A stretch of DNA of 64,000 nt, from positions 3,100,001 through 3,164,000 of the forward strand of contig OZ024747.1 of the NCBI GenBank assembly GCA_964016885.1, written 5' to 3'. A model generated the notes under the pieces. It was given only the letters and a program-made list of their open reading frames with translations. It was not told where the DNA came from and made no database searches. Source of the DNA: Eledone cirrhosa (taxonomy: Eukaryota). Made by a program: the position numbers and the translations under genes. This document shows positions 4,060 to 64,000 of the stretch, in pieces. Each line of letters starts with the position of its first letter. Positions within the stretch are counted from its first letter, which is position 1.

Positions 4060-4266
4060 TGCAAGTCATTTTTGTAAAACAAAAAAAAAAAAAAACTAAC
4101 AACACATGATGAAATTGGAATCCTTCTTTACAACAAATTTATAAATATTTTCTTTATTTTTTCTTAATTTTCATTTCAGATACACTATCCAATTATTTTC
4201 AGGAAAAAAAAAAGGTTTTGACTTCAAGATATTTTCCACAGATGGAACACCCACAATAAAATAAAC

Positions 4267-6663
4267 ATGAAATTTGAATTATGCATACTTCTCTTTTCTT
4301 TAGCTACATCTCTATGTGTAAATCTTACTTATTATGTTAAAGATGGACAAGCTGCAAATTCATTTGTTGCTAACATTGCTGCTGATGCACAGTTGTGGGA
4401 CAATATGATAAATAAATATAAAAATTTCATTTGGTTTAGCCAATTGCCAGTGGAAAAAACTGACAGTTCCCAGTTGTTTAATATTACGAAGACAGGGAAA
4501 CTTTATACTGCTAAAACACTGGATGCTGAAAGTCTATGTAAATATAATGCAGAATGTTTTAGAATGGTGGATGTTGCAATTCACAAACAAGAATATTTTC
4601 TTAAAGTTTTAGAAATAAAAATTGTTATTCAAGATGTTAATGAACATCATCCTGAATTTCTAAATAAAAATATACATCTAGAATTTTCTGAAGGTGATCG
4701 AGAAGGAATGATGAAAGCCTTACCAAATGCCATAGACAAAGATATAGGATTACAATATTCACAGATAACATATTTACTAAAGGACAATAATAGTAACCAT
4801 TTCACATTATCAGTATCCAAAAATATGGATGGTACTTCTAAACTTGGTATTGTTTTACAAAAGAAACTTGACAGAGAAATAAAAGATTCTTATCAACTTC
4901 AAGTTTTTGCAAAAGATGGAGGGCATCCACCCAGAGAAGGTATACTCAATCTCCAAATATCAGTTCGAGATGAAAATGATAATTCCCCAGTCTTTTCTCA
5001 AAATATTTACAATGTATCAATCAAAAGCGGCTATCAAAGATCAAGACCTATAGTTACTCTAACTGCAACTGATAAGGATTTTGGTGAAAATGGTAAAGTA
5101 ACATATCAATTCAGTTCCAAAACATCAGAGAGTGCTAGAGCCTATTTTAAATTAAATGAATCAACAGGAGAAATCTGGCAACTGCAAAAGTTCCCATCAG
5201 GTTCAAAAAAGACATACAAGTTGTTTGTTAAAACAAAGGACAAAGGTAATCCATCATTGAGCTCAGTTGCTATGGTTTTAATCAATATAAATAGCCAAGA
5301 GAACAATCCACCTGATATAGATGTAAGCTTTATTTCAAAATCAGAAGGAAATTCACCAACTATTTCAGAGGGAGTAAAAGTTGATAGCTTTATTGCTTAT
5401 GTAAAGGTTACTGATAACGATGTTGGAGAGAATGGTGAAATTAGCTGTTACCTTCATCATGATCAGCTACAGCTTAAGAGTCTTGGCAGAAAGAAGTATA
5501 AGCTGATAATTAAGAAACGGATTGACAGAGAAACAAAGAACAATATTGATTTCACAATAATTTGTCAAGATAGAGGAATACCACCTTTAAAAACAGTCAA
5601 ACGGTTCTCTATTCAAGTAGACGATGTTAATGATATTCAACCAAAGTTTATTAAAGAAGTATTCAAATTTTTTACGTATGAAAATGAAGAAACAAATTTT
5701 CCTGTTGGTTTCATTAATGCTACAGATGGTGACTTGGATTCAGGTGGTAAACTTATGTACTATTTGGAAAACAGCAAAGCGACACATGCATTCAAAATAT
5801 CTCATTTAGGTTTTATTTCAACTACACAATCTTTAGACCGTGAGCAACAAGAAATATATAAATTCAAGGTTTTTGTGAAAGACAATGGAATACCACCACT
5901 AAATAATGAAGCAAGTGTTGTCATTGAAGTAATGGATAAAAATGACAATGCACCATACTTTACATTTCCTAGCGTTAACCCTTTCAATCTAGATGTCCAT
6001 TACCATCCTCAGAGTAAGAGTGACATTACAACATTAAGAGCTTCTGACAGAGATAGCCATGTAAATTCATTTCTCAGCTATGAAATACTTGGAGGCAATG
6101 ATAAACAATTATTTAAAGTTAACCCTTACACAGGAGTGTTGTCTTTCTCTCGTACAGTTTACCAAAATGATGCTGGATCATATAATCTAAAATTAGCTGT
6201 CAAAGACAATGGTACACCAGTTTTATCAGCCACAACTACATTGTCTTTGACACTAACTGTTAGTAATACAACAGCCAGGATGTACACATCTGAAGACACA
6301 GAATCAGACAACAGAATACATATTAATTTGATGATTATTATAGTAGTAGCAGCAGTGATAGTTTCTGTTGCTATTGTAGTTTCTGTGATTGTTTGTGTTG
6401 TCCACAAACGGAATGTAAAAGAAAACCATTATGGTGCTGCCCAAGACTATGTTGGTGAAAGACGACCATCAGGATATGTTTGTGAACAAGGATCACCAAA
6501 ATATGATGTTCCTGTAGGAATTCTATCAGATCAAAAACAAGTTAGAAATTCTCAAACAAGCTTATTAAGAAGAGACCCTCATTCAATATATAAGCCTGGA
6601 CAGAGCTGGAAGGGGTCATCATCTGGAGTACACTTCCAAAATATAACACCAGAGACATATCAA
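4267..6663 (+). CDS. Pcdh: Protocadherin A, large coding exon 1 (signal peptide, EC1-EC6, TM, proximal cytoplasmic tail)
   Basis: The 809-aa ORF has a signal peptide and six cadherin repeats (LDAE/LDRE/IDRE; DVNEHHPEF, DENDNSPVF, DVNDIQPKF, DKNDNAPYF). It also has the protocadherin EC1 Cys-X5-Cys (CKYNAEC) and a TM helix LMIIIVVAAVIVSVAIVVSVIVCVV. A phase-0 donor CAA|GTAAGC follows 6663, at the same position as in the paralog. Confidence 0.97.
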
Positions 6664-9320: not shown

Positions 9321-9512
9321 GTGGATTGGCGGTGGATTGGCAGTATTGGTAGAGGGTCGGACGCCATGCTTTGACGTATAGAGTTACGGCCCTTGCCATT
9401 CTGAGTTCAAATCCCGCCAAGGTTAATTTGCCTTTTATCCTTACGTGGTCAATAAAATAAAGTACCAGTAATGCACTGGTTAATTGCTGGCCTTGTGCCT
9501 AACGTAGAAACA
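9321..9512 (+). mobile_element. tRNA-derived SINE, family 1
   Basis: A box TGGCAGTATTGG, B box GAGTTCAAATCC and body GCCTTTTATCCTTACG..ATAAAATAAAGTACCAG. An 18-bp TSD ATTATTAATTTTGAGTTT lies at 9303-9320 and 9513-9530. Confidence 0.9.
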
Positions 9513-9568
9513 ATTATTAATTTTGAGTTTATTTCTTGTCAAATGAAATTTTGTTATATTTGATACAG

Positions 9569-9746
9569 GGAAACTTGATGCAAGGTAACCCTCAAGAGTT
9601 TTCAGTGACACGTTTTATTGGTAAAGATCAACAACATATGCTTATGTCCCCTGACCGTTTCAGTGAGATGTCAACAATGTCTTCTGTAACTGACAGTGGA
9701 CATGGTTGTAGTGATGCAAGCACTGCACATTATGAAACATTACCTG
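9569..9746 (+). CDS. Pcdh: Protocadherin A coding exon 2 (cytoplasmic, CM1-like motif SEMSTMSSVTDSGHG)
   Basis: Acceptor TGATACAG|GGA and donor CCTG|GTAAGT. It is in frame with exon 1 (phase 0 in, phase 1 out), and a near-identical exon is present in the paralog at 58125-58293. Confidence 0.9.
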
Positions 9747-13175: not shown

Positions 13176-13399
13176 GTCTTAAAACTTACCTTCAAGAACA
13201 AATGTATGCAAGAAGCAACAAGTCTTTGCCATACTCTATCAGTAGAGCTAAGGATTCTAAAACGACAAACATTATAAACTTAAAGTCAACACAAGTAGAC
13301 AATAAAACTAATCTTAACCAGCCTCTGCCTTGGAATTTACCAACAAGGAACAGTTTTACAGCATATAACAAACCTCTACCAAAAGTTCCATTTTCATAA
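13176..13399 (+). CDS. Pcdh: Protocadherin A terminal coding exon 3
   Basis: Polypyrimidine tract plus TTTCAG|GT acceptor. The phase-1 join gives GLKTYLQEQMYARS...NIINLKSTQVDN...WNLPTRNSFTAYNK...PFS*, homologous to exon 3 of the paralog. Confidence 0.88.
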
Positions 13400-17040: not shown

Positions 17041-19388
17041 GTCTTTTCATTGAATGTAATTGAAACTTCTAGCTTCATAATCCCCAAAACTATGTCAAAC
17101 CCCATTCCTTGTAGTCTACCAAGATATGAAATATACATTTGGTAACATATCTCATTATTTAATTATTTAGAGGGTTACATAATTCTTGAGTATGTTCAAT
17201 TCGTGTCAAATAGGAATATAGACCGATCTCAAGATCTAAAGATCAGTGATGAGTTTGTGTTCAGATGAGTTCAATCATTCAGACTAATGCCTCATTAATG
17301 TTTTTCAATATTTATATGTTCACAATATCCATCTCCAAAGATGGTATTAATAGTCTCATAAATACTTTCCTGGAAAAACATAATTTGATACAGAAAGAAA
17401 ATTAAGCATTTTAAATTGTAGGGAAGAAGAGCATGCTGAATATGATCTTTTGAATATGTAAAGAGAATTTGTGTAAACTAAAGCAGATGTATAAATTTTC
17501 AGAGGTATTGGTTAATGTATAAATGCAAGATGAACATATATGTAAGACGATAAAAGAAAATGAAAGATATGTATAACAGGATGTATCATATGATAGTAAT
17601 ATTAGAACAGATATCGACCAAGAAAGCATGGCATTTCATTGGCTTAACTAAAATAGCCATTAGAAATAATATAAAAAAGGTTAGATATAAAGTGGTAAGA
17701 GACTAACATGAAAATATACTTATAATGGCGGAGAATAAAGATTTGTTTAAATAGAAAGATAAAAAATTACAAGTATATTTACCTGTGGACCTTAAGAATT
17801 AAGTCATAGAAATTGAACGTGTTATTTAATTACTTGGAGGTTATTTTCTCATTTGGTAGATCTGTAAAAAGGGGCAGTGCCCATGGTTTTCAAATATCCT
17901 TTAAAATTGAAGAAACAGTTAGTATTGATGTTCATTTTAAATTTAGCAAGAGAAATTCCAGATATTGGGATACAGCTCTAGCTTCCCTGCGGAAGTGTGT
18001 TGTCCATGAGAGATTCTCAGTGGTTGCGAGGACCAGCATGTGGAATTATTGCAAGGGCTCAAGTAGCATGATATTCATGCTAAATCCTTTTGATACAGAA
18101 CTGTACAGGGAGTACAAGACTACACCATTCTCTAGATGGAATGCCAGTCCATTTAAATAATAACTCCCAGCTCCACTGGTACTTATTTTCAGCTAAATTA
18201 ATTGAAGTATAGTGGAATGAAGTGCTTTGCTCAAAGACACAATGTGTCACTGAGTCTGGGAGTTGAACCATGATAGCCAAACCACTAAACCACAAACTTT
18301 TACATTTCATCCTTTATAATAAATATGAAATATGAAAATATAATGTTTATATTTATTGGAGAATAAAATTATTCAATAATTAAAGTTTTGCAGTATGAAA
18401 CTATTCAATTAAAAAAAAACTTTCATATTCTATATATCAATTCTTAAGGTCTGCTTATTTTCCGATATTAAAATTTTCCCCTTCTCTCACCTTTTACATT
18501 TATGGTTTATTTATTATACAGTTTTGAAAATATATCTATGAATTCAAATATAAAGATTCATCTGAGATGAGTTTTGTTAATAAAATCTAAATTTTCAAAA
18601 TCAACATCCTCATGTTCAGAATGCATGCATATAACATATAACATGTATACCACTACCATATTTTAATCATTATGAATCCTATCCCTGGAAATATACTTGT
18701 TCAAAATTAACCTGAAACCTTGTAAATGTTCAAGAGTAAGCCACTTGATAGATAATCAAAATATAGCATTGATGCAAACACAGCAATATTTAGATATTTA
18801 GAAGAAAAGGTGTAGCGTTAAAATCTGGTTATTAAGATGTTAGTCTAAAATAGCAAAAATTACTTCTGAATTATTGATTAAATAAAAGTATATTCTTCAA
18901 TTTTTTCTACTTTTTTAAATTCTTGTTTTCTATTTGTTAGTAATAAGTGTAATTTGATTTCATTTCTCAAAAGATTCCAACAATATAACACAAATGTGTA
19001 TCCCAAACCAGTTACTGTATTCTCAGAGTTTCATTTTCATTTCTACAATCCTGGCATCTCTTCACTAAATATTTATTTGAATAATTCCGACTTTTTAAAT
19101 TTGATATGAATGAACAAAATATTAAATATCAAATTCAAGAAAAAATATGTTTACTTGTTTTTATACAAACATTAAAATCAATAATTCATTGAAAGACGTA
19201 GAATTCAAGGTCAGCTAATCAATTGGGTTTTATAATACTGGCTGACGTATCCACAATACTCTTGATATTATTACCAATAAACTTAGATTTCACTTATATG
19301 TAAAGAGGTACTATGATGTTTTTACCCAACATGGGTACTTGTGTGTCCCTGGAGATCACAAAGTTACTACTATTATTATTAGTACCAA

Positions 19389-19580
19389 AGGGCGGTGGAT
19401 TGGCAGTATCGGTAGAGGGTCGGACGCCATGCTTTCCAGCATAGTTACGTCCCTTTACGGTCTGAGTTCAAATCCTGCCGAGGTTCACTTTGCCTTTCAT
19501 CCTTACGGGGTCGATAAAATAAAGTACCAGTAATGTACTGGGTAATTGCTGGCCTTGTGCCAAAAGTAGAAACAATTATT
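19389..19580 (+). mobile_element. tRNA-derived SINE, family 1
   Basis: Full-length copy near-identical to those at 53612 and 34780; a partial second head follows at about 19595-19690. Confidence 0.9.
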
Positions 19581-19689
19581 AGTAGAGTGATAACATTAGT
19601 ATCAGTAGAGCAAAACTCAACATGCTTTGTGGCATATAGTTATGGCCCTTTACATTCTGAGTTCAAACCCCAATGATGTTAGCTTTCCC

Positions 19690-23310: not shown

Positions 23311-23855
23311 TGGTATGAATCTACTACACAATAATTATTGATTATATAGAAATATTAGTTCCTCGTCTTGATCTCTTCCTTATTTCCCATCTTACAGAGA
23401 TGATTATCATTTAATAATATAAATACTTCCTAAAAGTACAATATCTTTTTTTACAATTCTTAAGTTAAGGAATGTTTGCTAGTTCTCTACTTTCTTTCTT
23501 TTGTATTTACATATCCTTCATCATTCTTCATTGCTTTCCAATTAAGTAGGATCTTCAGCAGTATCCATGCCTCACAACTTTGCTTTCTCTGTCTTTAGAT
23601 TTTGAAAAGATTTTAGTTTCTTTTAAAGATACATTTCTCTAAATTATATGATTTTCAATTATTCTACTTAACATTTTCCCTTTGTTGTTATATCTGGTAA
23701 CTTACCCTGTACCACAGTCATATTTCCCATAACCTTTCCATCCTTGTTCTTAATGTTATTCTTAGCTGTTTGGATTTAGTAATAAATAGTAGATTCCAAA
23801 TAGGGGCAGCGTATATGATTCTGAAGGAGTTGCTCTGTGGTTCTGTTATTAGTAT

Positions 23856-24046
23856 AATTGTTTCTACTTTAGGCACAAGGCCAGCAATTACCCAGTACGT
23901 TACTGGTACTTTATTTTATCGACCCCGTAAGGATGAAAGGCAAAGTTAACCTTGGCGGGATTTGAACTCAGAATGGCAAGGGTCGTAACTCTATGCGTCA
24001 AAGCATGGTGTCCGACTCTTTACCGATACTGCCAATCCATCGGCCC
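23856..24046 (-). mobile_element. tRNA-derived SINE, family 1
   Basis: Reverse-complement copy; an older copy follows at about 24060-24280. Confidence 0.88.
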
Positions 24047-24464
24047 TTATTAGAATAATAATAATTCTTGAGCCAAAATATTGTCTTAAGGTCAGTAAAT
24101 TGGAGGAAGGAGAAAGTTGATTGCCCCCACATTCCATCAGTATTTGACTAGTATTTCATTGACTCTGGTAGGATGAAAGGAAAACTGGAATTTGAACTCA
24201 AAACGTAGAATGTCGTAACTAGATACCACAAATCAGTTTATTTACAAAGATGTTCTGTGATACTGCTAATCTCACTGCCCTTGTTAGAGTGATAAAAATG
24301 ACTTCTGAGTTAAGCAGAAGGCCAACAATTTGGGATGATGATGATGATGATGCATCTAAAATCAAAGAGAGACTTGTCTATTGCTGTGACTTATCCCTGA
24401 CTATATAAGCTATATACATGTTTCTGTATATGTATTTTATGTATCCCAAGTCTAACCTGTCTCA

Positions 24465-27937: not shown

Positions 27938-28459
27938 CTCTCTCTATATATATAGGCTGGGAATATTTGTTACTTACACATGTTCTGATTTTGGTATGGT
28001 TTCAACAACTGGATGCCTTTTATATCAGCAACCAGATTTCTGGCTTCATTTTATTGTGGCACCAGCAATAGGGAGGTTATTGAACCCTTGGCAAGGTTTC
28101 CAAGGCTATACACCCTTCCTAACACCAACACAGAGTACTGGGTATATTTTATGGTGCCAGCATTAGAGCGTTCATCATATAAGTCAACTATCCTCTCATC
28201 TCTTTTTTTTATATTTGAATTAAAGCATCCTGTCATAATTTTATGTTAGAACTTTCTGTTGTTCTAAATTCAAAATTAACGAAAATGCTCCAAATTCTTG
28301 ATTATTTTTGAAATTAATTGAAACATATTAACTACATTTCATGAGAAATGTGGCCATGAAATGGTTAATAAAACACTATTGGATTTCTTTTGAAAAGTTA
28401 CCTTTCATGTGAGTAACGAAATTTTTTCCAAAACATTTATACCAGTCCGATGTTTAATA

Positions 28460-28892
28460 CACAGTGTAACAGACAGTGTAACAGATAGTGTAACAGACAG
28501 TGTAACAGACAGTGTAACAGATAGTGTAACAGATAGTGTAACAGATAGTGTAACATATAGTGTAACAGATAGTGTAACAGACAATGTAACGGATAGTGTA
28601 ACAGATAGTGTAACGGATAGTGTAACAGATAGTGTAACAGACAGTGTAACAGATAGTGTAACAGATAGTGTAACAGATAGTGTAATAGACAGTGTAACAG
28701 ATAGTGTAACATATAGTGTAACATATAGTGTAACAGACAGTGTAACAGATAGTGTAACATATAGTGTAACAGATAGTGTTACAGATAGTGTTACAGATAG
28801 TGTAACAGATAGTGTTACAGATAGTGTAACAGATAGTGTAACAGATAGTGTAACAGATAGTGTAACATATAGTGTAACAGATAGTGTAACAG
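28460..28892. repeat. 12-bp minisatellite (ACAGATAGTGTA), about 36 copies
   Basis: Seen directly; it produces the spurious SVTD-repeat ORFs. Confidence 0.97.
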
Positions 28893-30843
28893 AGAGAGGG
28901 TGGGGTATATGTGTGATAGGAAGTGGAGTAAGAGACATTGATACAGCACTGTAAATGTAGCAGAAATACAATTGAGAGCTCCATGCAAAAGAGAGCAATT
29001 GCTACATACTAAAGATATAGAGAGAGGAGAGAGAGAGAGAGGAAAGATGTGATAAGTAGGAAAAGATGTATTATGGAAAGAAAACCATTATAGAAGAAGA
29101 TGGAACCTAAGCTCTCCACACACTTTTACAAATATGTAATACATTGCATGGTCTAGAAATATATTTGAAAAAAGATAAAAAAATTAACCAAGAATTTAAT
29201 CCTCCTCCTCCTCCTCTTCCCCTCCTCCTCCTCATCATCATCATCTAGTGCCCATTTTCCCATGCTGGACTGGGTTGGATGGGTTACCACAGACCAACTT
29301 ACATCTCATTCACATACATTCTAGTTTTGGTATGGCTTCTACAGTTGGATTCCCTTCCTATCACCAGCCAATTCACAGAGTGTAGTCGGTATATTTTATC
29401 ATGGCACCAGCACTTGACAGTTTGCAGGTCCTTGATACAAGTCCTCTCAACTCTTTATTTGCCATAGTTTCAATGGCTGGATATCTTTCATAACACAAGC
29501 CATTTTATAAAGCGTACTTGATACATTTTGTGTATGTTGCCAGTAGAACTAAATACGTTGTTGTATCCTTAACACATTACATGTCTTCTCAACTCTTTGT
29601 TCTGCACGTTTTCTATAATTATGAGGAGGTGCTGAAATGTTCCTGGCTTTGGATAAAAGAAAATTTCATTCAACATATTCCCCTCTCAGATTCACACAGT
29701 TATTGCAGCAGTCCTTCAGTTTTTCTAAGCCCTGTAAAAAGAACTTGGAAGGTTGCTCCTCCAACCAGGCATCTGTAGTAGCAATCAAGCCAGGAACTTT
29801 TCAGCACCCTCTTGTAGATGCCTTTCCTAATGACATCCACTGTATACAGTGTACTGGGTGCATTTTGACATGGCACCAACACTAGGTAGGTCGTCGTGAC
29901 TTGACTGAAGAGCTTTCTCTACCCTGTAGAGGAATGGAGAAGGATTCTGTTTACTCCTAAGACAGTTGTGTTTAGTTGACAAAAATAAGAGGATGCTTAA
30001 GAAGGATGACAGTTATGGTGTTATGCATGTATAACAGGTGTGATGTGAGACAGAAGAGGAGTGAGAGGGATCTGAGACAGGGTGGAAGGGTAGAATAATG
30101 ATGAGAACAGTTGCTAAAGAATGGTTATGGAAGACATGTTTATGGATGGGTCACACTTGCTGTTGGATTGTAATGAGCTTTGAGAATTGAATTCTCGTTA
30201 CAATTGGGAGCCAAAGAAACATTAAGATATACACCTTCACACACACACACTCTCTCTCTCTCATTTTATTGTTTCCTGTGTTGCAAACCTGGTCAAATTT
30301 CTATACTGTACTAATACCATAAGTCCTCACTTCCTACCCCTGCAAGCTTCTACGTTGTTGTTAGACATATCAACAAATTTTCCTTATGTTTCTTCCTGCC
30401 ATTAAAAAAAAAAGGATATATTTGAAGACATTGGCCTAGATAAACTGGAAAGCCTTCTACTTCAGAGCTGATGTAAACAACAACACTGGTGTATTCCAAG
30501 TAAAGAGTAATTGCCAATAATTCCCTGTGGAGGTCGCTTTATTTATCTATTTATTTAATCAATTTAAATGTCCATATATAGCTAGTAAACAATGACAGAC
30601 TAGAGTAAGTCTCTAGTACTTTATTACAATTAAGAAACAAAAAATAGGATAGATAGAGATAAGTAAATATGAAAATTAAAATATTGTTTTATTATAAATA
30701 AATAAGATATAAAAAAAAAATAAATAGGGAAGGCCAACAGGAGACAAAATAAGCAGAAAAATATGATAAAGAAAAATAGAAAGCATAAGTATATTCAAAA
30801 GATAATGTTAACTGTACTGGCATTCCAGCTCACAGATTTTACC

Positions 30844-34500: not shown

Positions 34501-34779
34501 ATGAGCCAAAACAATTAATGCAAAGCATTCTATCTGACCTTCTAACAACTCTGCCAATTCATCACCTACTATCAGAAGAAATATATATTAATGATGATTA
34601 CTGACATCAGCACAAGTCTACATATTGTCAATGTTAGAACGTCAGATAGAATGCTTTGTGGTACATGTACGTCAATGCTCATCTTTTTCCATTTATCTGA
34701 GGGTTCTAAACCCCATTATCAGGCTCAAATTCCTTTAGTCAAAAATACGGTGAAAGCTATATATTTTCTAATATATAAT

Positions 34780-34957
34780 AATTGTTTCTACTTTAGGCAC
34801 AAGGCCAGCAATTACCCAGTGCGTTACTGGTACTTTATTTTATCGACCCCGTAAGGATGAAAGGCAAAGTCAACCTCGGCGGGATTTGAACTCAGATCGT
34901 AAAGGGACGTAACTATGCTGGAAAGCATGGCGTCCGACCCTCTACCGATACTGCCAA
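34780..34957 (-). mobile_element. tRNA-derived SINE, family 1 (young)
   Basis: Near-identical to 53612-53796, with TSD TTTCTAATATATAATAAT on both sides. Confidence 0.9.
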
Positions 34958-42687: not shown

Positions 42688-43190
42688 ACTTATATGTACA
42701 TATATCTATATCCATCTATCTATCTCTCTCTCTCTCTCGCACCCTATATATATATGTATTTGCATATGTGTGTGTGTATATATATGTATATATATATATA
42801 TGTGTGTGTATGATAACATATTGCAACTGTTCCTGGTTGTGAGGGCATTGGTAATTAATGGAGAATATTATGATTCTGTCACTGATGAACAGTGTAATTC
42901 TAAATAGAATAACTATGACTTGTTTACTAATATCAGAATATTCAAACATTAACACACACGAATACCATATGTGAAACCAATTATGACCATCAATTAAACC
43001 TATTTCAACCATTCAGTAATTTTAAATCAGACATCCACCATTTTTTACCACTCTCATGGTCGTTTATGAGCGGTGTTAAGCATTTGACCAATATGTCCCT
43101 ATTATGAGCATTATATTTCTGAATATGAAGCTGCGTTGGCCTCGAAATGTCAACAGACACATTGATCTATGAGCATTATTGTTCCAAACA

Positions 43191-43378
43191 GGGCGGTGGA
43201 TTGGCAGTATTGGTAGAGGGTCGGACGCCATATTTGACGTATAGAGTTACGACCCTTGCCATTCTGAGTTCAAATTCCGCCGAGGTTAACTTTGCCTTTC
43301 ATCCTTACGGGGTCGATAAAATAAAGTACCAGTAATGCACTGGGTAATTGCTGGCCTTGTGCCAAACGTAGAAACAAT
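43191..43378 (+). mobile_element. tRNA-derived SINE, family 1
   Basis: Full-length copy with a 16-bp TSD ATTATTGTTCCAAACA. Confidence 0.92.
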
Positions 43379-43559
43379 TATTGTTCCAAACAAAGCATAG
43401 AGTACTAATAAGAAAATACTAAAAATCTTTAATAGAAATTATCAAACTGGAGAATTGTCATAATAATTTCAATATAACATATACAACTATATATGTACAT
43501 TTGCCCCCTGAGAGATTGGACATTAAATGATGACATATATATATATATATATATATTTA

Positions 43560-43785: not shown

Positions 43786-43896
43786 ATATATATATATATA
43801 TATACATATTTATAGATGGGTGTATGAATGTGTAGTATAAATAAAGTGGTTTCATATAACAACCATGCTAGAGATGGATCATTATTATCACAGTAT

Positions 43897-44063
43897 AGGT
43901 AGAGGGTCGGACGCCATGCTTTCCAGCATAGTTAAGTCCCTTTATGATCTGAGTTCAAATCCCGCCGAGGTTGACTTTGCCTTTCATCCTAACGGGGTCG
44001 ATAAAATAAAGTACCAGTAATGCACTGGGTAATTGCTGGCCTTGTGCCTAAAGTAGAAACAAT
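43897..44063 (+). mobile_element. tRNA-derived SINE, family 1
   Basis: 12-bp TSD ATTATTATCACA. Confidence 0.9.
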
Positions 44064-44587
44064 TATTATCACATTCCGTTACTAGTTCTTTATGCCTAGT
44101 TTACAACTATGACATTCTTAAATCCACGTCTATTAACATTTAGAAACCTTTATGACTCCCTCTCCAGAATCAGAATAGTCATACTAGTGTTGTATTGGTC
44201 ATGTTTAGTCTAAAGTATGTCTCCAGTCTGCAGTCTCATCAGGGCTCTCTTTATCCCAGTTTATGTGGTGTGAAGCAACTGAGAGTACAAGACTTCTCAG
44301 TGGACAGGACACCAGTCCATTCCAGGGTTAAACCCTCAGGTATTACTGCTACTCATTTTCAGCTGAGTATACTTAGCAACATAAAATGAAGTGTTTTACT
44401 CAAGAACACAACACATATCCCCAGAATCAAACTTACAACATTATGATCATAAGTCCAACACCCTTACCACTAGGCCATGTAGCCCTACATAATATTTAGT
44501 AGTATGATAGGAATGGTAAGAGATCATGCAGTTATTATAGCTGTTTTAACTTCACATATGCTGTATCTGTGAATTAATTAATGGTTT

Positions 44588-44786: not shown

Positions 44787-44954
44787 TTATTCTGATATTA
44801 CCAGAGGCTCCATAGTGGTCTACATTGTTTTGTGTTGAGTCTTATAAAGAATTGTAGAATTATGAACTAATGAAGTCCTATCTAATACTTTCACATGTAT
44901 TGTATGGAAATGTATTGCAATGACTCTTTGTTGTAAATAAATGGTTGATGATGT

Positions 44955-45473
44955 GACAAATGTAACAATGTAGTGCTTATGAGACCAATGTGACAGGGTA
45001 GTGCTTATATGACCAATGTGACAGGGTAGTGCTTATATGACCAATGTGACAGGGTAGTGCTTATATGACCAATGAGACAGTGTAGTGTTTATGTGACCAA
45101 TGTAACAGGGTAGTGTTTATGTGACCGATGTAACAGGGTAGTGTTTATGTGACCAATGTAACAGGGTAGTGTTTATTTGACCAATGTAACAGGGTAGTGT
45201 TTATTTGACCAATGTAACAGGGTAGTGTTTATGTGACCAATGTAACAGGGTAGTGTTTATTTGACCAATGTGACAGGGTAGTGTTTATGTGACCAATGTA
45301 ACAATGTAGTGTTTATGTGACCAATGTGACAGTGTAGTGTTTATGTGACCAATGTGACAGTGTAGTGTTTATGTGACCAATGTAACAATGTAGTGTTTAT
45401 GTGACCAATGTGACAGTGTAGTGTTTATGTGACCAATGTAACAATGTAGTGTTTATGTGACCAATGTAACAAT
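44955..45473. repeat. 28-bp minisatellite (GACCAATGTRACAGGGTAGTGTTTATGT), about 18 copies
   Basis: Seen directly; variant units occur in contiguous blocks. Confidence 0.95.
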
Positions 45474-48651: not shown

Positions 48652-51036
48652 ATGTTAACTACAGTGTATGTGCTATTACTTATTCTGGAAACATCCCTAT
48701 GCGTAGATCTTGTCTACCGCATAAATGAAGAGAGTAACCCAGGAACATTTGTTGGTGATATTGCAGCAGACACAAAATTATTAAGCAACATATCTCCAAA
48801 GGATGACAACAATATTTGGTTCAGTCAGCTTCACCAAGGGAATACAAACAACTCACAGTTGTTCAATGTTGCCAAAACAGGAAAATTATATACAGCTCAG
48901 AGACTAGATGCAGAAACTCTTTGTAAATACAATGTAGAGTGTTTCAAAATGGTAGATGTTGCAGTTCAGCAGGAGGAATCATTTATACGGATACTGGAGG
49001 TTAAAATAATTATTGAAGATAAAAATGATAATAAACCAGAATTTCAAAGCAGACAAATCAACCTGACTTTCGATGAAACTGATGGCAAGGGAACAAAGAA
49101 ATCTATACCTAACGCCATTGACAAAGATATAGGAATACAAAATTCTCAGCTAACATATTTACTAAAGAACAATAATAATGATCTTTTCACATTATCAGTA
49201 TCCAAAAATATGGATGGTACTTCTAAACTTGGTATTGTTTTACAAAAGAAACTTGACAGAGAAATAAAAGATTCTTATCAACTTCAAGTTATTGCAAAAG
49301 ATGGAGGGCATCCACCCAGAGAAGGTATACTCAATCTCCAAATATCAGTTCGAGATGAAAATGATAATTCCCCAGTCTTTTCTCAAAATATTTACAATGT
49401 ATCAATCAAAAACGGTTATCAAAGATCAAGACCTATAGTTACTTTAACTGTAACTGATAAGGATTTTGGTAAAAATGGTAAAGTAACATATCAATTCAGT
49501 TCCAAAACATCAGAGAGTGCTAGAGCCTATTTTAAATTAAATGAATCAACAGGAGAAATCTGGCAACTGCAAAAGTTCCCATCTGGGTCAAAAAAGATCT
49601 ACAAACTGTTTGTTAAAGCAAAAGATGGTGGTAATCCATCTCTGAGCTCAGTTGCTTTGGTTTTAGTTAACATAAATAATCAAGAAAACAATCCACCTGA
49701 TATAGATATGAATTTCATATCAAAATCAGAAGACAATCTGCCCAGCATTTCCGAAGGAGTAAAAGTTGGCAGCTTTATTGCATATGTAAAAGTCACGGAT
49801 GATAATGAAGTTTCTTGTTATATTAATCAGGACCACTTTCAACTTCAGGCTCTTGGACGGAAAAAGTATAAAGTTCTTATTAAAAAAACAGTTGACAGAG
49901 AGGTAGAAAATCACATAGATTTTACCATTACTTGTGAAGACAAAGGATCCCCTCCATTGAAAACTGAGAAAAGATTTTCAGTGCAAGTATCAGATATCAA
50001 TGATGTACAACCAAAATTTACTAAAGAATCTTTTGAATTTTTAACTTATGAAAATGAAAATAGAAATTTTCCTGTCGGTTTCATCAATGCGACTGATCCT
50101 GATCTTGGACCAGGTGGTCAATTATCTTATTTTCTTTTAAGCAGAGATGGAAGTGTCCTTCCCTTTAAAATCTCTCATTTAGGTTTCATATCAACTACTC
50201 AGTCTTTAGATCGTGAGCAACATGAAATTTACAAATTTAAAGTTTTAGTTAAAGATAATGGTAACCCACCTCTTAACAATACAGCAAATGTTGTTGTAGA
50301 AGTTATGGATAAAAATGATAATACACCTTATTTTACATTTCCTAGTGTTAACCCTTTCAATCTAGATGTCCATTACCATCCTCAGAGTAAGAGTGACATT
50401 ACAACATTAAGAGCTTCTGACAGAGATAGCCATGTAAATTCCTTCCTCAGGTATGAAATACTTGGTGGCAATGATAAACAGCTATTTAAAGTCAACCCTT
50501 ACACAGGAGTGTTGTCTTTCTCTCGTACTGTTTACCAAAATGATGCTGGATCATATAATCTAAAATTAGCTGTCAAAGACAATGGTACACCAGTTTTATC
50601 AGCCACAACTACATTGTCTTTGACACTAACTGTTAGTAATACAACAGCCAGAATGTACACAGCTGAGGACACAGAATCAGACAACAGAATACATATTAAT
50701 TTGATGATTATTATAGTAGTAGCAGCAGTGATAGTTTCTGTTGCTATTGTAGTTTCTGTGATTGTTTGTGTCGTTCATAAAAGAAATCAAAAAGAAAACC
50801 ATTATGGTGCTGCCCAAGACTATGTTGGTGAAAGACGACCATCAGGATACGTTTGTGAACAAGACTCTCCAAAGTATGATGTTCCTGTCACAATTTTATC
50901 AGATCCAAAGCAAATAAGAAATTCTAAAACAACTCTTTTAAGAAGAGATCCTCAGTCCATGTACAAACCTGGACAGAGTTGGAAAGGGTCTTCATTAGGA
51001 GTACAACTTCACAGTATTACACCTGAAGCATATCAA
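48652..51036 (+). CDS. Pcdh: Protocadherin B, large coding exon 1 (signal peptide, EC1-EC6, TM, proximal cytoplasmic tail)
   Basis: The 807-aa ORF is collinear with PcdhA, with CKYNVEC in EC1 and an identical TM helix. Donor CAA|GTAAGT follows 51036, and an upstream acceptor TTTCAG lies at 48605. Confidence 0.97.
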
Positions 51037-53611: not shown

Positions 53612-53796
53612 ATGGTGGATTGGCAGTATCGGTAGAGGGTCGGACGCCATGCTTTCCAGCATAGTTACGTCCCTTTATGATCTGAGTTCAAATCCCGCCG
53701 AGGTTGACTTTGCCTTTCATCCTTACAGGGTCGATAAAATAAAGTACCAGTAATGCACTGGGTAATTGCTGGCCTTGTGCCTAAAGTAGAAACAAT
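53612..53796 (+). mobile_element. tRNA-derived SINE, family 1 (young)
   Basis: 21-bp TSD ATTATCTAAGTTGTTACTGTA (53590-53610 and 53795-53815). Confidence 0.92.
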
Positions 53797-53914
53797 TATC
53801 TAAGTTGTTACTGTAAATAATAAATATATATATATACCAGGTTCAAACACAAAGGAACCAAACTCTCACTGCCTCTCTCACTCCCGCTTTCCCCATCTCT
53901 CACTATTTTGAGCA

Positions 53915-55825: not shown

Positions 55826-56013
55826 TTAATTGTTTCTACTTTTGGCACAAGGCCAGCAATTACCCAGTGCATTACTGGTACTTTATTTTATCGACCCCGT
55901 AAGGATGAAAGGCAAAGTTAACGTCGGCGGGATTTGAACTCAGAATGGCAAGGGCCGTAACTCTATGCGTCAAAGCATGGCATCCGACCTTCTACCGATA
56001 CTGCCAATCCACC
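55826..56013 (-). mobile_element. tRNA-derived SINE, family 1 (young)
   Basis: Reverse-complement full-length copy. Confidence 0.9.
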
Positions 56014-56949: not shown

Positions 56950-57755
56950 TTAACCCTTTAGCATTTAAACTGGCCATATCCGGCCAGAACTCTCTCACCT
57001 CTTTCTGTTCAAACCAGCTGTAACTGGCTGCTCACACTGATGTTAAGGTATTCTTCTCAAAATAAATAATATAAAAATCTTGTAGATTCGATAATATATG
57101 AGATAATTATGTGAGGTAAAGCCTTTACTGTGAAAATACAATAGTATATATAGAGTAATGTAAATGTTATATGAGATAATTATGTGAGGTAAAGCCTTTA
57201 CTGTGAAAATACAATAGTATATATAGAGTAATGTAAATGTTATGTGAGATATTATGTGAGGTAAAGCCTTTACTGTGAAAATACAATAGTATATATAGAG
57301 TAATGTGAATGTTATGTGAGGTATTATGTGAGGTAAAGCCTTTACTGTGAAAATACAATAGTATATATAGAATAATGTAAATGTTATGTGAGATATTATG
57401 TAAGGTAAAGCCTTTACTGTGAAAATACAATAGTATATATAGAGTAATGTAAATGTTATGTGAGGTATTATGTGAGGTAAAGCCTTTACTGTGACAATAC
57501 AATAGTATATATAGAGTAATGTAAATGTTATGTGAGATATTATGTGAGGTAAAGCCTTTACTGTGAAAATATAATAGTATATATAGAGTAATGTAAATGT
57601 TATATGAGGTTTTATGTGAGGTAAAGCCTTTACTACGAAAATACAATAGTATATATAGAGTAATGTGAATGTTATGTGAGGTATTATGTGAGGTAAAGCC
57701 TTTAACCCGAAAATACAATAGTATATATAGAGTAATGTAAATGCTAAAGGGTTAA
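56950..57755. mobile_element. TTAA piggyBac-like MITE with an internal 72-bp unit expanded about 9 times
   Basis: Termini TTAACCCTTTAGCATTTA...TAAATGCTAAAGGGTTAA; 72-bp period across about 57097-57743. Confidence 0.85.
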
Positions 57756-58124: not shown

Positions 58125-58293
58125 GTACAGGGTAACTTTCAAGATTTTGCAGTGACTTGTGCTGTTGGCAAAAATCAACAACATATGGTTATGTCCCCTG
58201 ACCGTTTCAGTGAGATATCAACAATGTCTTCTGTAACTGACAGTGGACATGGTTGCAGTGATGCAAGCACTGCACATTATGAAACATTACCTG
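58125..58293 (+). CDS. Pcdh: Protocadherin B coding exon 2 (cytoplasmic, CM1-like motif)
   Basis: A long U-rich tract precedes CTAG|GTACAG|GGT (two in-frame AGs). The exon encodes VQGNFQDFAVTCAVGKNQQHMVMSPDRFSEISTMSSVTDSGHGCSDASTAHYETLP and ends at donor CCTG|GTAAGT. Confidence 0.9.
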
Positions 58294-59688: not shown

Positions 59689-59963
59689 GCCTCAAATCTT
59701 GTCTTCAAGAAAATACCCCTAACACAGGCAGGAAGTCCTTACCACAGACAATGAGTAAACCAAAAGGTACCAATCCTAGGTCTTCCTATCAACTTAAAAC
59801 TAATCTTTTTACTCAAGGCAATAACATAATAAACCTAAAATCTACACAAGCAGATAACACCAACCCTAACTTTCCACAATCTCAGTCCTGGGATCTACCA
59901 ACAAAAAACAGTTTCACTTCTTATAACAAAACATTGAACAAAGCCAAAGAACTATATTCATGA
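59689..59963 (+). CDS. Pcdh: Protocadherin B terminal coding exon 3
   Basis: Acceptor TTATGCAG|GC. The phase-1 join gives GLKSCLQEN...NIINLKSTQADN...WDLPTKNSFTSYNK...ELYS*, homologous to 13176-13399. Confidence 0.88.
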
Positions 59964-62758: not shown

Positions 62759-63525
62759 CATTATCTGTTTTCAATGCTGACATGAGCTGGACAGGCCATT
62801 ACAGCCCTTGTCAGTCTTTATTTGGAGCTACTGCTCTCGTAGATCAGTTGAGGGACTACATCATATGTTTGTTTTTTGAGGTGGGGGAAGAAAGCATCTG
62901 CTGCAAACGCCATATCAACAGTTTAAAATATCCAGCAGTGACATATGTTCCATAAACAATAAATAACCCTGTTGCAGTTTGATGAATGTTTGCATCTTAT
63001 GCCATATTTATGGCAGTGGATTGGAAGATTTGGTAGAGCATTGGACAAAATACTTTCTGATATTTAATTATGACTCTTTTTCATTCTGAGTTCAAATCCT
63101 GCTGAGGTCAACTTTGCTTTTCATTTATTTTTAGATTGATAAAATAAAGTACCAGTCAGGTACTGAGGTTGATTTATTCCATTTTTCCCCCTCCAGAAAA
63201 TTGCTGGTCATGTACCTAAATTAGTTATCATTTTGTCATACTTGAAATAAGTTATAGGTTGGCATCTGGAAGGATATTCAACTGTAGGAAACATGCTTTA
63301 AAAAGTCTTGTCTAACTCTTGGAAGCATGGACTCCCCCCCCCCCCCCTCAGATATAAACACAATGATGATGAGGATGAAGCTGTTGCTGGGTAAATATAT
63401 TTTACACCCTATGTACTTTAAGGGTTAAATAATTACTTGCATGTTTTATTTAGTGTTAGGCCAGATTATATCTGTTTTTATCACACCACCAGCAATCTTT
63501 AAAGTAACATTATGGGATTCACTTT

Positions 63526-64000
63526 GTTGGTTTATATATATCTAAATCCCAGCTCAATATCGAGGTGGTGTTGGTTTATATATCTCTAAATCCCTGCTCA
63601 ATATCGAGGTGGTGTTGGTTTATATATCTCTAAATCCCTGCTCAATATCGAGGTGGTGTTGGTTTATATATCTCTAAATCCCTGCTCAATATCGAGGTGG
63701 TGTTGGTTTATATATCTCTAAATCCCTGCTCAATATCGAGGTGGTGTTGGTTTATATATCTCTAAATCCCTGCTCAATATCGAGGTGGTGTTGGTTTATA
63801 TATCTCTAAATCCCTGCTCAATATCGAGGTGGTGTTGGTTTATATATCTCTAAATCCCTGCTCAATATCGAGGTGGTGTTGGTTTATATATCTCTAAATC
63901 CCTGCTCAATATCGAGGTGGTGTTGGTTTATATATCTCTAAATCCCTGCTCAATATCGAGGTGGTGTTGGTTTATATATCTCTAAATCCCTGCTCAATAT
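63526..64000. repeat. Homogeneous 44-bp minisatellite (at least 10.8 copies, runs off the window)
   Basis: Unit TTGGTTTATATATCTCTAAATCCCTGCTCAATATCGAGGTGGTG; the copies are essentially identical. Confidence 0.97.

Follow-up and report, generated by a model that had tools for sequence, protein, structure and literature searches.

A near-identical EC2-EC3 tract in four tandem octopod protocadherin genes, most likely maintained by gene conversion

Regional gene conversion is already known from the clustered protocadherins of vertebrates, and the papers on fugu and on Xenopus, mouse and zebrafish that treat it reportedly cite Noonan et al. 2004. In these arrays the cadherin repeats EC4-EC6 are homogenised, and the two papers describe EC2 and EC3 as converted 'seldom' or apparently not at all (PMC1852091 for fugu; PMC4978886 for Xenopus, mouse and zebrafish). 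Converted regions in fugu have raised GC3, a common correlate of conversion and no requirement for it (PMC1852091). Whole-gene trees, together with similarity, have led to suggestions of gene conversion in the protocadherin arrays of coleoid cephalopods (Albertin et al. 2022, PMC9068888; Styfhals et al. 2019, PMC6339937). The genes described there are full-gene tandem duplicates with their own downstream exons, like those reported here; unlike our analysis, the available text of both papers holds no mapping of within-gene tracts or domains. Our literature search listed no paper with within-gene tract mapping in cephalopod protocadherins (papers other than those named here were covered by their listing), and it found no binding study of these proteins.

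Clustered and delta protocadherins of vertebrates form an antiparallel EC1-EC4 trans dimer (PMC7082078, PMC5106212, PMC5001838, bioRxiv 10.1101/493106). The EC2:EC3 contact tends to hold more of the specificity (PMC5001838, 10.1101/493106), which has also been described as spread across the whole EC1-4 interface (PMC5106212). The octopod proteins share the fold, with Pcdh18, gammaC4 and gammaB2 as best Foldseek matches to the protein modelled here, and none of the 41 listed PDB matches was a cephalopod structure by its molecule name.

Two genes in the window and their near-identical tracts

The window, a stretch of 64,000 nucleotides from Eledone cirrhosa, contains two protocadherin genes on the same strand, A and B, each encoding six cadherin repeats and a transmembrane segment (TM) and each having two downstream coding exons (Table 1). 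Both show what is described for coleoid protocadherins, namely six repeats, a TM and a tail, with the ectodomain in one large exon, and each has its own 3' exons with no shared constant exons, which fits whole-gene tandem duplication. The main exon of gene A has Pfam Cadherin_2 and Cadherin matches and ends in a splice donor (CAA/GTAAG). Its protein matches an Octopus vulgaris protocadherin at 87% and an Argonauta hians protein at 84%, octopod protocadherins being its nearest relatives. Genome-wide, a motif of the EC5-EC6 junction occurs 189 times, against 0 for the reversed control, and this count is a lower bound on the size of the family. The window also holds scattered copies, 88-98% alike and in either orientation, of a repeat of about 180-200 bp that is probably a SINE-like element, as well as minisatellite arrays in introns and intergenic DNA; the long open frames inside these arrays are presumably not genes.

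Table 1. Coordinates of features in the window. Residue numbers are counted on the gene A stop-to-stop ORF, which starts at 4222.
Feature	Position	Strand	Basis
Main coding exon of gene A, from the signal peptide through EC1-EC6 and the TM into the cytoplasmic tail	4267..6663	+	ORF
Gene A next coding exon (cytoplasmic)	9569..9746	+	tblastn of ortholog tail, 93%; AG/GT ends and phase
Gene A last coding exon, with stop	13176..13399	+	tblastn, 97%; ends read
Gene B main coding exon, architecture as gene A	48652..51036	+	ORF, Pfam
Gene B next coding exon	58125..58293	+	tblastn of ortholog tail; ends read
Gene B last coding exon, with stop	59689..59963	+	tblastn of ortholog tail; ends read
Homogenised tract, gene A (ORF residues 194-325)	4800..5198	+	nucleotide comparison, AlphaFold strand limits
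Homogenised tract, gene B	49185..49583	+	nucleotide comparison
EC2 strands A-C of gene A, ortholog-specific and spared	4648..4799	+	
EC3 strands F-G of gene A, with partial or older homogenisation	5199..5310	+	
Second tract, gene A EC6-stalk-TM	5974..6398	+	
Second tract, gene B	50347..50771	+	
SINE-like repeat copies	9328-9519, 19375-19581, 23854-24062, 34775-34957, 43175-43382, 43891-44069, 53613-53799, 55827-56013		
Minisatellite arrays	28452-28896, 44951-45473, 57095-57746, 63525-64000		

The initial annotation of this DNA had claimed that 4801-5198 and 49186-49583 differ at 6 of about 398 nucleotides, four of the changes non-synonymous and two silent, and this was reproduced exactly. The differences lie at 4906, 5027, 5031, 5059, 5066 and 5086, the four replacements are F/I, S/N, A/V and E/K, and the edges are sharp, the nearest mismatches falling at 4799 before the tract and 5199 after it. 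The annotation had also put EC1 protein identity at about 55%, for which we measured 53-54%, and had noted many silent changes in EC4-EC5. For A against B, the uncorrected synonymous difference (pS) amounts to 0.84 in EC1, to 0.035 in the tract (3 of 86.5 sites, in a segment that takes in boundary codon 326), to 0.82 in EC4 and to 0.63 in EC5, in round terms about 0.03 in the tract versus 0.6-0.8 in EC1, EC4 and EC5. Counted by codon, silent differences number 3 in 127 within the tract and 112 in 268 elsewhere in EC1-EC5 (Fisher p 2.8e-19), and the segment score was equalled in 0 of 10,000 permutations. Between the flanks of A and B, 2 kb upstream and 2.3 kb downstream, blastn (E<=1e-3, dust on) gave no match. 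Unlike the converted regions of fugu, the tract shows no rise in GC3, which is 0.17-0.19 versus 0.22 in the same region of 84 other genes and so lends conversion no support.

In the AlphaFold model (mean pLDDT 83), the first tract codon, residue 194, is also the start of EC2 strand D, and EC3 strand F starts at 330, just past the tract end. The gene A tract thus consists of EC2 strands D-G, the EC2-EC3 calcium linker and EC3 strands A-E, and its earlier description as an EC2-EC3 tract stands for these strands, while EC2 strands A-C lie outside it. Those spared strands are 41-57% identical between paralogs (A/B, A/D, B/D; gene D is introduced below) and 78-90% identical between orthologs. EC3 strands F-G show paralog identities of 82-84% in the window's species and 89-100% in Argonauta.

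A second near-identical tract, spanning EC6 to the TM, was missed in the earlier account. It differs between A and B at 11 of 425 nucleotides, with a pS of 0.11-0.16, and was found at >=90% in 11 of 40 listed places, all of them on the contig of the window (C7). Over 1.5 Mb of this contig, EC6, stalk and TM are homogenised among gene A and 10 other genes, paralogs that are otherwise saturated. In vertebrates, EC6 holds the cis interface (PMC5106212).

Collapse, mis-polishing or a chimeric join in the assembly could make copies look alike, and the same-species contigs that contain the junctions extend no more than 29-30 nt past them into the tract, which falls short of our 31-letter bridging rule; such ends are probably the behaviour of a k=31 graph at a shared repeat. 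Nevertheless, we consider an assembly artefact highly improbable. Short-read contigs match all four A and B junction sequences with 0 differences, the junctions are bridged by 45-129 letters in contigs of other organisms, the tract exists in four copies (see below) with private differences in each, and the same pattern appears in separately annotated Octopus and Argonauta proteins. The collapse that the initial annotation had named as a danger to its claim is thus disfavoured by the junction contigs, the private differences and the other octopods. We would like to note that the read evidence consists of short-read contigs, that the same-species run (X1) is possibly the source of the assembly itself, and that private variants of single genes were not seen in the same-species contigs, which drop variants. 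Tract contigs of three other organisms differ from the window at 5-6 of 173, 15 of 204 and 24-25 of 201 letters (3-12%), like their flanks, at depths of 52, 66 and 17.8 versus about 12-22, 24-34 and 4-10 in the flanks (2-4 times); because contigs drop variants and depth gives no copy number, we take these contigs as supporting evidence only.

Four tandem genes and their orthologs

A genome search with the tract, in which 40 of 100 candidates were scored, retrieved four genes at 94-100%, and the other 36 of the 40 listed matches at 68-76%. The four genes, in the order D, A, B, C, lie on the same strand within about 230 kb of C7, with D at 3.040 Mb and C at 3.271 Mb. The earlier account of two protocadherins sharing the tract therefore holds for A and B, although the group consists of four tandem genes and not of a pair. 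B and C are recent duplicates, and EC1 identity among A, B/C and D is 52-59%. Informative sites back the grouping of D with A and of B with C almost throughout EC1, EC4 and EC5, and switch inside the tract.

For each of A, B/C and D, orthologs are present in both Octopus and Argonauta, which dates the duplications to before those splits. In trees of 16 proteins, both EC1 with EC2 strands A-C and EC4 with EC5 group by ortholog, whereas the tract places the four Argonauta paralogs in one clade (bootstrap 93). Approximately unbiased (AU) tests reject a grouping by species for EC1 (p 1e-7), EC2 strands A-C (4e-8), EC4 (1e-6) and EC5 (0.002), and reject a grouping by ortholog for the tract (p 0.0024); for EC3 strands F-G, neither grouping was rejected. 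Trees and tests were made at the protein level, the AU tests with 15 proteins (P0011 was omitted as a duplicate of P0006), and the Octopus rows are a looser test than the Argonauta ones because they are 90% cluster representatives from three species. The per-domain trees are thus discordant, which the initial annotation had named as support for its idea, with EC1, EC4 and EC5 grouping by ortholog and the tract by species, and together with the pS contrast and the permutation test they support its claim of segmental gene conversion with sharp boundaries.

Twelve residues are fixed across the four paralogs in the window's species and again in Argonauta, yet differ between the two species. All 12 fall in 244-359, within the 150 residues of EC2 F-G and EC3, versus 0 in the 545 others (EC1, EC2 A-E, EC4, EC5 and EC6-TM). 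This pattern indicates that the deep-time unit is EC2 F-G plus the whole of EC3, EC2 D-E being common to A, B and C. The left boundary of the tract is similar in the window's species and in Argonauta, at strand D for A, B and C and at strand E-F for D.

The low silent difference among the paralogs might also be expected if an overlapping regulatory or RNA element constrained the nucleotides, with no conversion at all. The tract is not conserved between orthologs, however, which was the check proposed earlier on this point. Between species, its DNA has changed at the pace of its flanks, its protein has changed faster than they have (EC3 strands A-E are 62-74% identical to the Argonauta orthologs, versus 83-88% for EC1), and other paralogs are near saturation over the same stretch, with a mean pS of 0.67. 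This divergence between species, at least on a par with that of EC1, excludes sequence constraint, and we give this explanation a negligible probability.

We therefore conclude, with high though not full confidence, that four old tandem octopod genes share EC2(D-G)-EC3, most likely overwritten by recurrent interlocus conversion, while EC1, EC2 strands A-C, EC4 and EC5 evolve separately. Like vertebrate clustered protocadherins, these are tandem paralogs with sharply bounded, near-identical segments of low dS that are homogenised lineage by lineage, and the EC6-TM tract of the window follows the vertebrate pattern, as do arrays on another contig (C2) described below. In contrast, the four-gene group homogenises EC3 and EC2 F-G, with EC4-EC5 near saturation. 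We regard this homogenisation of EC3 and EC2 F-G as real, well supported and local to the four genes. One practical consequence is that whole-gene trees, and also the EC2-EC3 trees that are the usual choice for vertebrates, mislead for these genes.

The tract on the protein and the putative dimer interface

In vertebrate dimers, the A-B-E-D face of EC2 meets the C-F-G face of EC3, and the C-F-G face of EC1 meets the A-B-E-D face of EC4 (PMC7082078). The vertebrate specificity pairs 111:294, 125:253 and 128:257 (PMC5106212) map, by alignment to gammaB4, to about 154:343, 168:299 and 171 with the C-D loop, where the gammaB4 chain numbers may sit a few residues off the numbering of that paper. 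The EC2 member of each mapped pair lies outside the tract, and the EC3 member lies inside it or in the partly homogenised strands F-G. The initial annotation had inferred that the EC2/EC3 half-interface is copied between genes, of which the tract covers only a part; EC2 strands A-C, with the counterparts of vertebrate positions 111, 125 and 128, are ortholog-specific. The opposite idea, that the tract avoids the interface as a whole, was rejected: EC2 D-E and EC3 C with the C-D loop lie inside the tract, and EC3 F-G is homogenised in Argonauta.

A mean-field coupling analysis of 207 of 208 sequences (effective number 148) placed 16 of the top 20 inter-domain couplings on the faces of the vertebrate interface and 1 on opposite faces, against a background of 8% (endpoint shuffle, p 0.0002); the faces are those of PMC7082078 and the labels our own assignment. 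A tree-aware count, for which the pairs were chosen from the same data, weakened this signal: 124:384, 167:357, 180:300 and 204:344 were above expectation, 201:337, 163:339, 139:428 and 154:343 were not above background, and 131:425 rests on about one joint change. This last pair, in EC1 and EC4, is a charge swap in the family, with K-E in 107 sequences and E-K or E-R in 95. Overall, the covariation moderately supports, short of proof, a putative vertebrate-type antiparallel dimer in the octopod family, the top couplings falling on the same faces. A different, EC2:EC2 register, prompted by three genes that vary only in EC2 (see below), was unsupported, the top couplings being EC1:EC4 and EC2:EC3, although intra-domain couplings leave room for it.

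Among covarying positions, 20 of 23 in EC2:EC3 have the same residue in genes A and B, versus 10 of 18 in EC1:EC4, in keeping with the earlier idea of a shared EC2:EC3 and a diverged EC1:EC4 interface. In EC3 strands F-G, the four genes still differ at a few surface positions in the window's species. Vertebrate EC2:EC3 contacts tend to carry more of the specificity, whereas in the four-gene group EC2:EC3 is the more shared interface.

We also observed that the EC3-EC4 junction (EC3 E-F loop and linker; 5185-5310 in gene A) is without canonical calcium motifs across the family. A DRE-like motif in the EC3 E-F loop and DxND in the EC3-EC4 linker, which is of QENNP type, both occur in 0 of 208 sequences, versus 207 of 208 for the EC2-EC3 linker; unlike clustered and delta protocadherins, all 208 sequences thus have an EC3-EC4 linker without DRE and DxNDN motifs. 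As judged from these motifs, this suggests a calcium-poor and possibly flexible joint. The literature search returned nothing specific on a calcium-poor EC3-EC4 junction.

The rest of the family and the origin of the tract

We fetched 90 loci out of at least 189 and compared the 88 with long ORFs, having dropped L027, which has a short ORF, and L063. The zero EC1 values of L027 are an artefact of sequence missing there. In these 88 genes, 421 tracts were detected, and tracts between diverged genes were found in EC1, EC2-EC3, EC3-EC4, EC5-EC6 and EC6-TM. By a plain count, 0 of the 421 tracts cover the bins at residues 150-180. In 4 of 5 close groups, EC2 strands A-B rank first among 15 segments in replacement diversity (pN). 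In three C2 subfamilies, of which 10, 22 and 19 genes were sampled, the part from EC4 to the TM has a pS of 0.00-0.13, compared with 0.17-0.63 for EC2-EC3, so these three large arrays, as sampled, show the vertebrate pattern, with EC4-EC6 homogenised and EC2-EC3 diverse. In the four-gene group, dS is not lowest in the C-terminal repeats as vertebrate-type conversion would have it. Accordingly, the claim of a pattern opposite to that of vertebrates, in which EC2/EC3 are described as escaping conversion (PMC4978886, PMC1852091), is supported for these four genes, and fails as a rule for the whole cluster, three large C2 arrays being vertebrate-like.

The initial annotation went on to propose that the EC2/EC3 half-interface is a cassette moved between genes throughout the cluster, so that new combinations of EC1/EC4 with EC2/EC3 yield new homophilic codes. 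In its favor, the family as a whole contains mosaic genes, the EC1 identity among A, B/C and D (52-59%) is hardly above that to other family members, and coupled EC1:EC4 positions differ more than EC2:EC3 ones. Against it, there is one cassette type in all four genes, EC2 A-C is never within the tract, and the three large arrays sampled keep EC2-EC3 diversity while homogenising EC4-EC6. Furthermore, AU tests do not reject the four genes as a monophyletic group, with p-AU values of 0.57 for EC1 and 0.55 for the non-tract domains, and invasion of unrelated genes by a cassette is unsupported. Because all four genes carry the same tract, conversion removes differences, and its predicted effect is less difference within the group instead of new codes. 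We consider the proposal unlikely, and its phrase of a cassette-like way to build identity codes is not supported.

For the recurrent conversion that we favor, short and overlapping events would recur where homology is still high and stop at diverged flanks. It is established population-genetic reasoning that such boundaries persist, since conversion needs high identity; as conversion stops where flanks have diverged, the boundaries of the tract would be self-maintaining. Selection on the EC2 A-B surface probably helps to hold the left boundary. The gap in tract cover at EC2 A-B may also belong to a 5' to 3' gradient, given that EC1 too is rarely covered by tracts.

Whether selection has kept this conversion going is a separate matter. 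By the same mechanism, the tract could be a neutral leftover, a homology island yet to escape concerted evolution, with its position at a binding surface incidental; the sole difference is that selection is denied. Other pairs and groups carry tracts at residues 40-144, 226-496, 317-558, 342-533, 350-436, 466-615 and 526-723, and the differences between the A and B tracts are 4 replacements versus only 2 silent changes, both of which fit a neutral origin. Two observations speak against it: the left boundary lies at much the same place in Argonauta as in the window's species, and EC2 A-B is spared in all five close groups. We put its probability slightly below even. More tentatively, and in our view rather less probably than otherwise, selection may have kept conversion on since before the Octopus-Argonauta split and so maintained a common EC3 face, making the four proteins a cross-binding class or leaving identity to EC1:EC4, the reverse of vertebrates. 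If such a selected EC3 face is real, an independently expanded octopod family would be using the vertebrate antiparallel dimer.

If the vertebrate antiparallel dimer applies, recurrent conversion is predicted to give the four proteins a common EC3 docking face and an EC2:EC3 contact with little discriminating power among them. With the EC3 face common to all four, the EC2:EC3 contacts of an A:B heterodimer would be like those of the homodimers, provided that each EC2 binds that face; discrimination would then be expected from EC1:EC4 or from the few F-G differences, or else the proteins would cross-bind. As this stretch is the most variable part of the vertebrate counterparts, these four proteins would either need another means of discrimination or lack one. 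Having EC3 in common, and EC1, EC2 A-C and EC4 divergent but conserved among orthologs, the group is a natural experiment, one that bears on a possible neuronal identity code of cephalopod protocadherins and on the surfaces that would carry it.

Several other loci of the family deserve mention. Possible pseudogenes or assembly errors are L027 and L063, with short ORFs of 629 and 254 aa, and L047, which seems to have an internal deletion across EC3. L005 and L006 (C2, 335.75 and 335.89 Mb) share a long tract at residues 226-496; most of EC3-EC4 is free of differences between the two, while EC1, EC5 and EC6 are diverged. L015, L036 and L037 (C7, 2.83-2.98 Mb) are essentially identical in EC1, EC3 and EC4 (pS near 0) and differ only in EC2, with a pS of 0.26-0.77, and are thus isoforms that vary in one domain.
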